Part shown: positions 597-3,338 of the stretch, one piece after another | How the letters are laid out: each line of letters opens with the position of its first letter | Position numbering within the stretch: the stretch's first letter is position 1 | IMG/VR virus record: IMGVR_UViG_2700989364_000009 | Strand: one strand, 5' to 3' | DNA from: a virus | Taxonomy: Duplodnaviria > Heunggongvirae > Uroviricota > Caudoviricetes | DNA: 5,097 nt | The notes under the pieces: generated by a model | What the model was told of the DNA's origin: nothing | Seen by the model: the letters and a program-made list of their open reading frames with translations, nothing else | The model's database searches: none | Position numbers and translations under genes: made by a program

Positions 597-3338
597 GTGC
601 TCAGTGATTTCTGCTCGGCGATGCGCTGTATGCCGGTATGGAACGGGCAGACGCTGACGTTCGTGCAGGACCGACAGTCGGATAAGGTGTGGGCCTATAA
701 CCGCAGTAATGTGGTGATGCCGGATGATGGCGCGCCGTTCCGCTACAGTTTCAGCGCCCTGAAAGACCGCCATAATGCCGTTGAGGTGAACTGGATTGAC
801 CCGGATAACGGCTGGGAGACGGCGACAGAGCTTGTGGAGGATACGCAGGCCATTGTCCGTTACGGTCGTAACGTCACGAAGATGGATGCCTTTGGCTGTA
901 CCAGCCGGGGGCAGGCACACCGCGCCGGGCTGTGGCTGATTAAAACGGAACTGCTGGAGACGCAGACCGTGGATTTCAGCGTGGGTGCTGAAGGGCTTCG
1001 TCATGTACCGGGCGATGTCATTGAAATCTGCGATGATGACTATGCCGGTATCCGCACCGGCGGGCGCGTGCTGGCGGTGAACAGCCAGACCCGGACGCTG
1101 ACGCTCGACCGTGAAATCACGCTGCCATCCTCCGGCACCACGCTGATAAGCCTGGTTGACGGGCAGGGGAATCCGGTCAGCGTGGAGGTCCAGTCCGTCA
1201 CCGACGGCGTGAAGGTAAAAGTGAGCCGTGTTCCTGACGGTGTTGCTGAATACAGCGTGTGGGGGCTGAAGCTGCCGACGTTGCGCCAGCGCCTGTTCCG
1301 CTGTGTGAGTATCCGTGAGAACGATGACGGCACGTATGCCATCACTGCCGTGCAGCATGTACCGGAAAAAGAAGCCATCGTGGATAACGGGGCGCACTTT
1401 GACGGCGACCAGAGCGGCACGGTGAATGGTGTCACGCCGCCAGCAGTGCAGCACCTGATATTCCCCGCTGTCTGCAGTGACTTCTGCGATCAGGTAGACC
1501 GCCATAATGCCGTTGAGGTGAACTGGATTGACCCGGATAACGGCTGGGAGACGGCGACAGAGCTTGTGGAGGATACGCAGGCCATTGCCCGTTACGGTCG
1601 TAACGTCACGAAGATGGATGCCTTTGGCTGTACCAGCCGGGGGCAGGCACACCGCGCCGGGCTGTGGCTGATTAAAACGGAACTGCTGGAGACGCAGACC
1701 GTGGATTTCAGCGTGGGTGCTGAAGGGCTTCGTCATGTACCGGGCGATGTCATTGAAATCTGCGATGATGACTATGCCGGTATCCGCACCGGCGGGGGCG
1801 GGCTGGCGGGGGACAGCCAGACCCGGACGCTGACGCTCGACCGTGAAATCACGCTGCCATCCTCCGGCACCACGCTGATAAGCCTGGTTGACGGGCAGGG
1901 GAATCCGGTCAGCGTGGAGGTCCAGTCCGTCACCGACGGCGTGAAGGTAAAAGTGAGCCGTGTTCCTGACGGTGTTGCTGAATACAGCGTGTGGGGGCTG
2001 AAGCTGCCGACGCTGCACCAGCGATTGTTCCGCTGCGTGAGTATCCGTGAGAACGACGACGGCACGTATGCCATCACCGCCGTGCAGCATGTGCCGGAAA
2101 AAGAAGCCATCGTGGATAACGGGGCGCACTTTGACGGCGACCAGAGCGGCACGGTGAATGGTGTCACGCCGCCAGCGGTGCAGCACCTGACTGCCGAAGT
2201 CACCGCAGACAGCGGGGAATATCAGGTGCTGGCGCGCTGGGACACGCCGAAGGTGGTGAAGGGGGTGAGCTTTATGCTTCGCCTGACCGTGGCAGCGGAT
2301 GACGGCAGTGAGCGGCTGGTCAGCACGGCCCGGACGACGGAAACCACATACCGCTTCACGCAACTGGCGCTGGGACGGTACACGCTGACAGTCCGGGCGG
2401 TAAATGCCTGGGGACAGCAGGGCGATCCGGCGTCGGTATCGTTCAGGATTGCCGCACCGGTAGCACCGTCGCGGATTGAGCTGACGCCGGGCTATTTTCA
2501 GATAACTGCCACGCCGCATCTTGCGGTTTATGATCCGACGGTACAGTTTGAGTTCTGGTTCTCGGAAACGCGGATTACCGATATCAGGCAGGTTGAAACC
2601 ACAGCCCGCTACCTTGGCGCGGGGCTGTACTGGATAGCCGCCAGTATCAATATCAAACCGGGCCATGATTATTACTTTTATATCCGCAGTGTGAACACCG
2701 TTGGCAAATCGGCATTCGTGGAGGCCGTCGGTCGGGCGAGCGATGATGCGGAAGGTTACCTGGATTTTTTCAAAGGCAAGATAACCGAATCCCATCTCGG
2801 TAAAGAGCTGCTGGAAAAAGTTGATCTGACGGAGGATAACGCCAGCAGACTGGATGAGTTTTCGAAAGAGTGGAAGGACGCTAACGATAAATGGAATGCG
2901 ATGTGGGGCGTCAAAATTGAGCAGACCAAAGACGGCAAACATTATGTCGCGGGTATTGGCCTCAGCATGGAGGACACGGAGGAAGGCAAGCTGAGCCAGT
3001 TTCTGGTTGCCGCCAATCGTATCGCGTTTATTGACCCGGCAAACGGGAATGAAACGCCGATGTTTGTGGCGCAGGGCAACCAGATATTCATGAACGACGT
3101 GTTCCTGAAGCGCCTGACGGCTCCCACCATTACCAGTGGTGGCAGTCCTCCGGTATTTTCCCTGACATCAGACGGAAAGCTGACCGCTAAAAATGCGGAT
3201 ATCAGTGGAGCTGGGAGACGGCGACAGAGCTTGTGGAGGATACGCAGGCCATTGTCCGTTACGGTCGTAACGTCACGAAGATGGATGCCTTTGGCTGTAC
3301 CAGCCGGGGGCAGGCACACCGCGCCGGGCTGTGGCTGA
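597..3338 (+). CDS. J: J-like tail tip / host-specificity protein, internal segment containing an in-frame internal duplication (blocks A-B-C, inverted linker, B-C, D); no authentic N-terminus in window; ends at a frameshifting junction
   Basis: Frame 3 is open from 513 (TGA at 510-512), first GTG at 597, TGA at 3336-3338. Translation carries motifs I recognise from lambda J ([35 protein letters not shown]; [21 protein letters not shown]; [11 protein letters not shown]). Block C occurs twice in this frame (891-1458, 1623-2190), spaced 732 bp = 244 codons. After 3209 the frame reads non-J peptide ([17 protein letters not shown]...). Confidence 0.6.
765..1458 (+). repeat. Direct repeat unit B+C, copy 1 (694 bp)
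   Basis: Begins gaccgccataatgcc, ends cagcacctga; same unit at 1497-2190 (offset 732) and partially at 3210-3857. Confidence 0.85.
1459..1496. other. Junction linker: inverted copy of the 31-bp quasi-palindrome spacer plus truncated right arm, joining block C back to block B
   Basis: 1459-1489 (tattccccgctgtctgcagtgacttctgcga) matches the reverse complement of 2191-2221 (tattccccgctgtctgcggtgacttcggcag) with 4 mismatches; tcagg (1490-1494) matches the right arm. Confidence 0.75.
1497..2190 (+). repeat. Direct repeat unit B+C, copy 2 (694 bp)
   Basis: Offset +732 from 765-1458, in frame. Differs by one substitution in B (gcc vs gtc, A/V), the G-cluster at 1797-1812 and C-terminal variants in C. 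Confidence 0.85.
2181..2231. repeat. Quasi-palindrome: 10-bp perfect inverted repeat (cagcacctga / tcaggtgctg) around a 31-bp spacer; second copy at 3848-3898
   Basis: Left arm 2181-2190, right arm 2222-2231 (exact reverse complement). Left arm alone recurs at 559-568 and 1449-1458, each the last 10 bp of a C block. Confidence 0.8.
2191..2775 (+). repeat. Block D allele 1 (immediately downstream of block C)
   Basis: Homologous to 3858-4442 at roughly 95% identity by eye ([28 protein letters not shown]...DFFKG); scattered substitutions, no indels seen. Confidence 0.8.

Follow-up and report, generated by a model that had tools for sequence, protein, structure and literature searches.

The window analyzed here is the entire 5,097-bp contig CXFR01000279.1 of the Shigella sonnei draft assembly GCA_001261595.1. 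The contig comes without flanking context or neighbors, so that the window is all there is, and its content is fragments of the lambdoid tail gene J alone, with both contig ends falling inside J. Four partial J copies are arranged head to tail (Table 1), and no single intact open reading frame (ORF) of ~1130–1165 codons is present. Self-BLAST showed that a ~570-nt segment of J occurs four times in the window, with 94–98% identity between the copies, and the whole window maps onto ~2.1 kb of one gpJ in every complete genome or phage that it matched. At least three J alleles are represented in these 5 kb. Because the copies are partial, with D1 cut at 3208 and D2 running off the end of the contig, the window has to be read as a set of J fragments and not as a functional J gene. 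The gene order L-K-I-J-lom-stf is present in three reference loci that carry the same alleles (L002, L003, and L004), whereas the window itself contains J fragments only.

Table 1. Fragments, joins, and cassette boundaries in the 5,097-bp window (aa, residues of gpJ)
Feature	Position (nt)	Strand	Description
J fragment A1	1–568	+	gpJ aa 436–624; EC2-like allele, shares the variable sites of E. coli EC2 gpJ (alignment)
Join J1	569	.	Lone orphan A between ...CAGCACCTGA and CTGACCACACAG...; the short overlap, CTGA, is present twice
J fragment A2	570–1458	+	gpJ aa 329–624
Join J2	1459–1495	-	37-nt inverted snippet of a third J allele; reverse complement codes for a 12-residue peptide
J fragment A3	1496–2190	+	gpJ aa 393–624
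D1 5' flank	2191–2775	+	Two FNIII/Ig domains, gpJ aa 625–820; Pfam Ig_J, Ig_J_second
D1 short lambda-type shaft cassette	2776–3080	+	gpJ aa ~821–921; alpha-helical shaft and upper central straight fiber
D1 conserved block	3081–3208	+	gpJ aa 922–964, lower beta-prism; 91.4% nucleotide identity to 4832–4959
Join J3	3209	.	Lone orphan A between ...ATCAGTGG and GCTGGGAGACGG...
J fragment A4	3210–3857	+	gpJ aa 409–624
D2 5' flank	3858–4442	+	FNIII/Ig domains; protein nearly identical to lambda gpJ 625–820
D2 long phage-21-type shaft cassette	4443–4831	+	Extra 28 codons at ~4493–4576
D2 conserved block	4832–4959	+	Counterpart of D1 block 3081–3208
D2 downstream part	4960–5097	+	Fiber bottom and first residues of the receptor-binding region, then contig end

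The fragments are connected by three joins. At J1 the sequence steps back from J aa 624 to aa 329. Within the fragment that follows, A2, positions 811–1280 are identical to A4, and from 1281 onward the sequence is that of the A1 allele. The inverted snippet at J2 is entered at a native 10-nt inverted repeat (CAGCACCTGA/TCAGGTGCTG), and after it the sequence jumps to J aa 393. The reverse complement of 1449–1495 matches intact gpJ in complete E. coli genomes, at 100% identity in 8 of the records listed and at 99% or more in 11. Fragment A3 equals A4 from 1543 onward save for five bases, four of which are changes to G inside 1797–1812, where the other copies have C, T, T, and A, a cluster that looks like a sequencing or gap-filling error. 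J3 cuts D1 short and jumps back, out of frame, to J aa 409. One ORF, at 597–3338, is open and in frame across J2, an outcome expected by chance about one time in three.

D1 and D2 both matched the Pfam families Ig_J, Ig_J_second, and Phage_Tail_Tip (PF09327), with E values of 1e-31 to 1e-40, and a phmmer search against the PDB aligned D2 with the solved structure of lambda gpJ (8iyk_J, E = 8.3e-196, residues 625–835 and 838–1008). On this homology evidence, D1 and D2 are two alleles of a lambdoid J gene, which encodes the tip attachment protein or central tail fiber. D1 is 99.5% identical to an intact gpJ of 1137 aa and D2 is 99.4% identical to an intact gpJ of 1165 aa, a difference of exactly 28 aa. 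The order of domains is that of lambda gpJ (FNIII-1, FNIII-2, alpha-helical shaft, beta-prism, and receptor-binding domain; PDB 8iyk, 8xci, and 8xcj), and the cassette of D1 is of the lambda type, with few residue differences. In contrast to full-length lambda gpJ, the window holds only fragments (aa 625–964 in D1, and aa 625 to ~40 residues past the conserved block in D2), and the receptor-binding region that D2 enters is not of the lambda (LamB-binding) type. The last part of D2 is unlike lambda, its sequence type being that of gpJ from E. coli EC2 and Z1323PEC0014.

When placed on the numbering of lambda gpJ, the variable cassette covers residues ~821–921, made up of the alpha-helical shaft and the upper beta-prism of the central fiber; the shaft comprises residues 809–861 and is followed by the beta-prism (PMC11101478). 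On its N-terminal side the module is bordered by the FNIII domains, and on its C-terminal side by the conserved lower prism, after which comes the receptor-binding domain. PF12421, the C-terminal receptor-binding Ig domain, begins ~80 residues after the cassette and lies mostly beyond the window, which contains only its first residues; the domain is present in the intact genes that are 99.4–99.5% identical to D1 and D2. The initial annotation of this DNA had described the variable region as receptor-proximal, a label that does not fit this position. In this part of J, variation is highest in the shaft, through which the receptor signal reaches the tail tube, and not in the receptor-binding domain.

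The alignment of D1 with D2 shows a sharply bounded change in similarity. The 5' flanks are identical at 546 of 585 nt (93.3%) without a gap, and the 3' blocks are identical at 117 of 128 nt (91.4%). Between them, cassettes of 305 nt (D1) and 389 nt (D2) share 186 identical positions, or 61% of the 305 aligned bases, and are separated in length by one 84-nt gap (28 codons) that appears as one 28-aa gap at the protein level. The reading frame starts at 2190 in D1 and at 3857 in D2. The upturn in divergence is visible already near position 2700, and identity falls from >90% to <40% within about 100 nt. Mismatches number 126 of 306 in the cassette and 50 of 711 in the flanks (Fisher p = 1.2e-36), which places the conserved-variable-conserved structure far beyond chance and shows that divergence between the two alleles is not uniform. 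The initial annotation had proposed this structure with the same boundaries, and it stands, although the flank identity of about 95% that it gave was slightly generous. It had also attributed to D2 an additional 84 bp (28 codons) and a Q/N-rich peptide ending in VDTNNN; both are present, and by count Q and N make up 26% of the peptide.

The rate of synonymous substitution (dS) is 2.08 in the cassette and 0.19 in the flanks, and dN/dS is alike in the two, at about 0.2. A cassette dS of ~2.1 against a flank dS of 0.19 indicates that recombination brought the cassette in, and that it is not the product of divergence in situ. Receptor-recognition genes of phages are a classic substrate for diversifying selection, diversity-generating retroelements, and invertase systems, and the presence of two versions at one locus has a superficial likeness to a set of alternative cassettes. 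We considered whether selection for host range had driven divergence of the cassette in situ, in the absence of recombination, or whether programmed variation had generated it. We regard this as extremely improbable: dS is tenfold higher in the cassette than in the flanks at the same dN/dS, the differences between the cassettes include the 84-nt indel, and the cassette is not the receptor-binding domain. An invertible cassette of the Mu Gin or P1 Cin type was rejected because D1 and D2 are direct repeats and the sole inverted repeat consists of two 10-nt arms that all J genes have natively; none of the ORFs in the contig was found to encode an invertase. A diversity-generating retroelement was rejected because the cassettes differ by 84 nt in length and at 39% of aligned positions, and the contig was found to have no reverse transcriptase ORF.

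Import of the cassette by recombination can be viewed against its distribution in other genomes. Each cassette has perfect (100%) matches in intact gpJ genes: among 5426 complete E. coli genomes, 2633 contain the short version and 3609 the long one, and at least 816 genomes must consequently carry both. Among phages, the short form is found in lambda, 434, and HK630, and the long form in phage 21, phi458, and Lambda_2G7a. The nucleotide identity of the D2 cassette, with the 28 extra residues included, is 96.9% to phage 21, 98.7% to Lambda_2G7a, and 100% to phi458, and yet phage 21 and Lambda_2G7a pair the long cassette with a C-terminal receptor-binding domain different from that of D2. In six phages or prophages we counted five combinations of cassette and receptor-binding domain (short with the lambda domain, short with type-B, long-1 with type-B, long-1 with type-C, and long-2 with type-C). 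Judged from these sequence comparisons, the shaft cassette has been exchanged as a module by recombination, independently of the receptor-binding domain. Cassette exchange between lambdoid J genes, as suggested in the initial annotation, is thus borne out by the contrast in dS and by this independent assortment. The short (lambda, 434) and long (phage 21) modules would have been swapped by homologous recombination in the conserved flanks, and the conserved block downstream of the cassette, which is largely kept in a set of six J proteins that span three types of cassette and three of receptor-binding domain, is a likely platform for crossovers that separate the shaft and receptor-binding modules.

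The difference between the cassettes of D1 and D2 is a common, already cataloged shaft-module difference among lambda-like J genes. It carries little biological weight, because the two cassettes recur across thousands of prophage sequences and among classical phages (lambda, 434, and 21) and because mosaic exchange between lambdoid tail genes is a textbook phenomenon. As elsewhere in the modular (mosaic) evolution of lambdoid phages, a sharp, deeply diverged segment lies between flanks of ~92–93% identity, and neighboring modules assort independently. Compared with lambdoid mosaicism in general, there is nothing different in kind; this is an intragenic case, within J, and it affects the shaft, not the receptor-binding domain. 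Lambdoid modular evolution by recombination in conserved flanks, exchange with resident prophages included, has been described previously (PMC3945230, PMC2327257).

The long cassette has its extra 28 codons within the alpha-helical shaft, inserted after lambda aa 836 and before aa 837. Within the insert, six of the seven core hydrophobic residues occupy a/d positions, and its 3.5-residue periodicity was matched by just 0.2% of shuffles. Heptad periodicity was clear in the 28-residue insert only and was not significant across the whole long shaft, and so we do not claim one uninterrupted coiled-coil register. Single-sequence AlphaFold2 predicted that residues 188–212 and 218–275 of D2 are helical (mean pLDDT 47; 57–86 over the region), which, at this low confidence, gives a weak hint of a helical shaft. 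The insert probably corresponds to four heptads of helix, and it would lengthen the shaft by ~4 nm if it were fully helical. Because LamB binding makes the lambda shaft flip and refold in part into beta-sheet, an added ~4 nm could modulate how far the tail tip reaches or the threshold at which it is triggered. We tentatively raise the possibility, which we think somewhat doubtful, that the short and long forms of the shaft make up a functional module of their own, exchanged apart from the receptor-binding domain via the conserved block, and that the length might fit, for example, the thickness of the O-antigen or capsule while receptor specificity is unchanged. J shafts fall into discrete classes of length, and these offer a simple, testable handle on the recently proposed triggering mechanism of lambda.

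Module exchange concerns how the two alleles came to differ; their position side by side in one contig is a separate matter. Joins J1, J2, and J3 were not contiguous in any of the 5426 complete E. coli genomes (a set from which Shigella was excluded), J2 and J3 were absent from the GTDB genomes (species representatives only), and J3 was not found in JGI metagenomes. A match of E. coli EcPNK006 to the J3 query was rejected, as its two pieces are 479 bp apart and do not form the same join. Among ~15 billion proteins, the chimeric 913-aa CST65831.1 stands as a singleton. S. sonnei is a clonal and heavily sequenced species, and although this is so, the protein has been seen only once, which counts in favor of an artefact. 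We conclude that the adjacency of D1 and D2 is strongly indicated, though not proven, to be an artefact of assembly. The two alleles would most likely come from different prophages in one S. sonnei isolate, and a short-read assembler, or a scaffolder together with a gap-filler, would have built the 5.1-kb contig from four or more repeat fragments that belong to no fewer than three J alleles.

The anatomy of the joins, the type of record, and the species together suggest that a scaffolder or gap-filler was responsible. SSPACE and GapFiller are greedy and prone to false joins according to the authors of a high-throughput assembly pipeline, whose S. sonnei drafts comprised 405 contigs on average (PMC5320598). 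Judged from its assembled sequence, the contig studied here resembles the repeat-induced chimeric contigs of short-read drafts, with their false joins by scaffolders and gap-fillers (PMC5320598), in being short, in containing only a multi-copy prophage gene, and in having its joins at repeat edges. The two orphan single bases, the inverted snippet, and the cluster of erroneous-looking bases are further artefact-like traits.

It is also conceivable that the window is a real, degenerate tandem array of J fragments, a pseudogene pile-up that arose by illegitimate and homologous recombination among the prophages of this S. sonnei strain. Lambdoid prophages do recombine among themselves, remnants of J exist (in E. 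coli EcPNK006, a truncated "phage tail tip domain-containing protein" has both halves of the J3 query within 479 bp), and the ORF at 597–3338 is open through J2. Nevertheless, the contig starts and ends in J and has nothing else inside, the copies differ by 2–6% and hence do not reflect a recent duplication, no complete E. coli genome contains any of the three joins, the chimeric ORF has been found just once, and the orphan single bases at two joins and the G cluster are typical of assembly or gap filling. We consider such an array very unlikely. The initial annotation had named both recombination between different prophages and co-assembly as possible reasons for the presence of two alleles at one locus; of these, co-assembly is favored, and recombination as the cause is disfavored by an all-J contig whose artificial-looking joins occur in no collection searched.

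Co-assembly could in principle have involved alleles from two strains or phages in a mixed or contaminated sample, given that at least three J alleles are found in one 5-kb contig and that a mixture would produce the same tangles in the assembly graph. However, a mixture is not needed, as single complete E. coli genomes hold up to 14 J-matching places each and at least 816 of them carry both cassettes, and in E. coli 377323_2f the third-allele snippet lies 2 Mb from a D2-like allele; we therefore think a mixed sample very unlikely. In all probability, D1 and D2 are ordinary J alleles that differ by an exchanged shaft module and that have been brought together by an assembly artefact. CXFR01000279.1 is a warning case in this respect, because its chimeric "host specificity protein" CST65831.1, with its duplicated domains, is now in public databases, where readers could take it for a new J architecture or for evidence that prophages have recombined.

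Alignment of D1 and D2, two allele copies of J (gpJ, the tip attachment protein), showed that the segment coordinates of the initial annotation were correct and that the conserved-variable-conserved pattern it described is real, mismatches being far denser in the cassette (the variable segment) than in its flanks (Fisher p = 1.2e-36). With codons counted from 2190 and 3857, the two proteins were separated by one gap only, of 28 residues; the 28 codons (84 bp) by which D2 had been said to be longer, and the peptide quoted for it, were both found in the alignment.

Features of the window, with positions in nucleotides unless marked as residues
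Feature	Position	Detail
5' flank	D1 2191-2775; D2 3858-4442	546/585 nt identical (93.3%), ungapped
Cassette	D1 2776-3080 (short); D2 4443-4831 (long)	186 identical, 61% of 305 aligned bases; one 84-nt gap
3' block	D1 3081-3208; D2 4832-4959	117/128 nt identical (91.4%)
Single-gene stretch of ~570-650 nt, four copies	1-572; 891-1458; 1623-2193; 3290-3860	94-98% identity (self-comparison)
Repeat	1543-2815; 3210-4481	95.7% identity (self-comparison)
Repeat	3057-3208; 4808-4959	89.5% identity (self-comparison)
J fragments, contig order	gpJ residues 436-624; 329-624; 393-624 + D1 (625-964); 409-624 + D2	
Inverted repeat site	2181-2231, 3848-3898 (native); 1449-1495 (inverted copy)	hub/FNIII-1 boundary, aa 622-638
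Join J1	569	...CAGCACCTGA + A + CTGACCACACAG...; CTGA overlap duplicated instead of merged
Join J2	1459-1495	reversed 37-nt snippet, entered via the 10-nt inverted repeat CAGCACCTGA/TCAGGTGCTG, then abrupt jump
Join J3	3209	...ATCAGTGG + A + GCTGGGAGACGG...; out of frame
Longest ORF	597-3338 (+)	913 aa, across J2; Phage-tail_3 domain twice
Antisense ORFs	300-2942 (-); 2942-4462 (-)	880 aa; 506 aa

Synonymous divergence (dS, Nei-Gojobori) was 2.08 (saturated) in the cassette and 0.19 in the flanks, and dN/dS was about 0.2 in both, which is the signature of a cassette imported from a distant lineage and then held under purifying selection. These values led us to reject diversifying selection acting in place. 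Programmed variation (invertible cassettes or a DGR) was also tested as the source of the D1/D2 difference and rejected. Intact genes exist for both versions: E. coli EC2 has a 1137-aa gpJ with 99.5% identity to D1 over all of D1, and E. coli Z1323PEC0014 has a 1165-aa gpJ with 99.4% identity to D2. Between these two intact proteins the length difference is exactly 28 residues, and they have their C-terminal receptor-binding domain in common. In an alignment with the J proteins of lambda, Lambda_2G7a, phage 21, and BP-4795, three cassette types emerged: short, long-1, and a second long type with only ~69% DNA identity. Three cassette types and three receptor-binding-domain types occur in five combinations, which, together with the dS values, supports the cassette exchange between lambdoid J genes proposed in the initial annotation. 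The 41-residue block after the cassette is largely conserved across these combinations, and we infer that crossovers use it and the FNIII flank as platforms. The second long type, the third shaft-cassette class, is long like D2; it is found in phage BP-4795 (L007:3201-3577) and in many Stx1a/Stx2a phages and is paired with the phage 21-type receptor-binding domain. In the Z1323PEC0014 prophage with the D2-like J, the type III effector gene cif lies just downstream of the tail-fibre genes (L003:8385-9233).

Pfam domains assign D1 and D2 to the C-terminal half of gpJ, in the order Ig_J, Ig_J_second and Phage_Tail_Tip (PF09327); in the intact proteins the receptor-binding domain (PF12421) comes only after these, at residues ~1001-1136. 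D2 matched solved lambda gpJ (8iyk, 8xci, and others) with E = 8e-196. Because DFFKG (816-820 in lambda numbering) ends at 820 and QIFMNDV begins at 922, the cassette corresponds to lambda residues ~821-921. It takes in the upper prism and most of the shaft but not the receptor-binding domain, so its description as receptor-proximal was imprecise. The 28 additional residues of D2 lie within the shaft, between lambda residues 836 and 837. Six of the seven core hydrophobic residues in this insert occupy a/d heptad positions, its 3.5-residue periodicity was matched by just 0.2% of shuffles, and a low-confidence, single-sequence AlphaFold2 model predicts a helix there. We infer that the D2 shaft may be four heptads longer, or about 4 nm if fully helical. 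When the receptor is bound, the shaft turns over by ~180 degrees, part of it refolding into beta-sheet (PMC11101478).

The sequences in the window are fragments of lambda gpJ family members, D1 having a lambda/434-type shaft and D2 a phage 21-type shaft. Their mosaicism is nothing new in kind: intragenic mosaicism of lambdoid tail genes through conserved-flank recombination, including exchange with resident prophages, is established (e.g. PMC3945230, PMC2327257). A by-product of the comparison is that the shaft of gpJ, one of the moving parts in the triggering mechanism that has been proposed, exists in discrete length classes, and these assort independently of receptor specificity; a non-exhaustive literature search found no statement to this effect.

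The window is the complete contig CXFR01000279.1 (5,097 bp) of draft assembly GCA_001261595.1, not part of a chromosome stretch. Compared with 5,426 complete E. coli genomes and 50,697 phage records, it resolved into five overlapping pieces on ~2.1 kb of one gene, annotated as gpJ, phage attachment tail tip protein J. The copy at 811-1458 equals that at 3210-3857 through 1280 and then shows nine differences, mostly following the allele of copy 1-568; either a natural mosaic J allele or a path switch in the assembly graph would account for it. Between the copies at 1543-2190 and 3210-3857 there are only five differing bases. Four of these fall within 16 nt (1797-1812), and each is a change to G (C>G, T>G, T>G, A>G) when compared with the counterpart at 3464-3479, which is identical otherwise, and with every reference J gene. 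They alter a 10-residue peptide and look like gap-fill or base calls of low quality instead of a genuine allele.

The joins between the fragments bear on why D1 and D2 adjoin. A perfect inverted repeat (CAGCACCTGA ... TCAGGTGCTG, 10-nt arms 31 nt apart) is present in every J copy. Two fragment ends, 568 and 1458, coincide exactly with the end of the left arm, and from 1459 its loop runs in the opposite orientation. The reverse complement of the J2 snippet codes for 12 residues and matches intact gpJ genes of complete E. coli genomes at 100% identity (eight records at 100% among the matches listed, 11 at >=99%), and is therefore a piece of a third J allele. None of J1, J2, and J3 is contiguous in any of the 5,426 complete E. 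coli genomes; 185,579 GTDB species-representative genomes contain neither the J2 nor the J3 pattern, and JGI metagenome contigs likewise lack that of J3. We conclude that the juxtaposition of D1 and D2 is very probably an assembly artefact; of the two origins first suggested for it, co-assembly is favoured by the joins, and recombination between prophages is not upheld as the cause. The base patterns of the copies at 811-1458 and 1543-2190 and the lone occurrence of the 913-aa chimera lean in this direction too. A genuine pile-up of J pseudogene fragments is improbable. Shigella sonnei is a clonal, heavily sequenced species, so a real arrangement seen only once is less likely. At one E. coli EcPNK006 locus (NZ_CP071436.1, 2646716-2647194, "phage tail tip domain-containing protein"), the end of the conserved ADISG block and the GWETATEL region, ~1.6 kb apart in an intact J gene, lie within 479 bp; the locus seems to be a true J remnant, rearranged or truncated, with a junction different from J3 of the window.

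SSPACE and GapFiller are greedy and capable of false joins, according to the developers of a high-throughput Illumina pipeline in wide use, whose S. sonnei drafts average 405 contigs (PMC5320598). Single-base gap closures and repeat contigs placed end to end fit the anatomy of the joins, although this pipeline is only a candidate source of the record.

The alleles might instead have come from a mixed sample and not from several prophages in one genome, a reading that is likewise improbable and is not needed, because single genomes have up to 14 J-matching places. Of the 5,426 genomes, 2,633 contain the short cassette and 3,609 the long cassette, always under a gpJ annotation among the matches listed. 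At least 816 genomes, by counting, hold both, so both types in different prophages of one genome are commonplace. E. coli 377323_2f (NZ_CP039404.1) carries J copies at four or more well separated loci (1703554, 2777307, 3073734, 3703706), including a 99.3% match to D2 and, 2 Mb away, a copy that matches the inverted snippet of the third allele at 100%. This genome illustrates the multi-prophage setting in which short-read assemblers become confused.

CST65831.1 ("host specificity protein [Shigella sonnei]") is the database entry for the longest ORF. Among ~15 billion proteins clustered at the 90% level it is a singleton; like the contig, it is very probably artefactual, a chimera in the public databases. 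The practical lesson is that CXFR01000279.1 and its 913-aa protein should be regarded as database artefacts. Very long antisense ORFs also lie opposite the J frame. Because the sense frame is almost without TTA, CTA, and TCA codons, with one per 870 codons and one per 413, the codon-aligned antisense frame is nearly stop-free; these ORFs are a by-product of codon usage and give no evidence of a gene.
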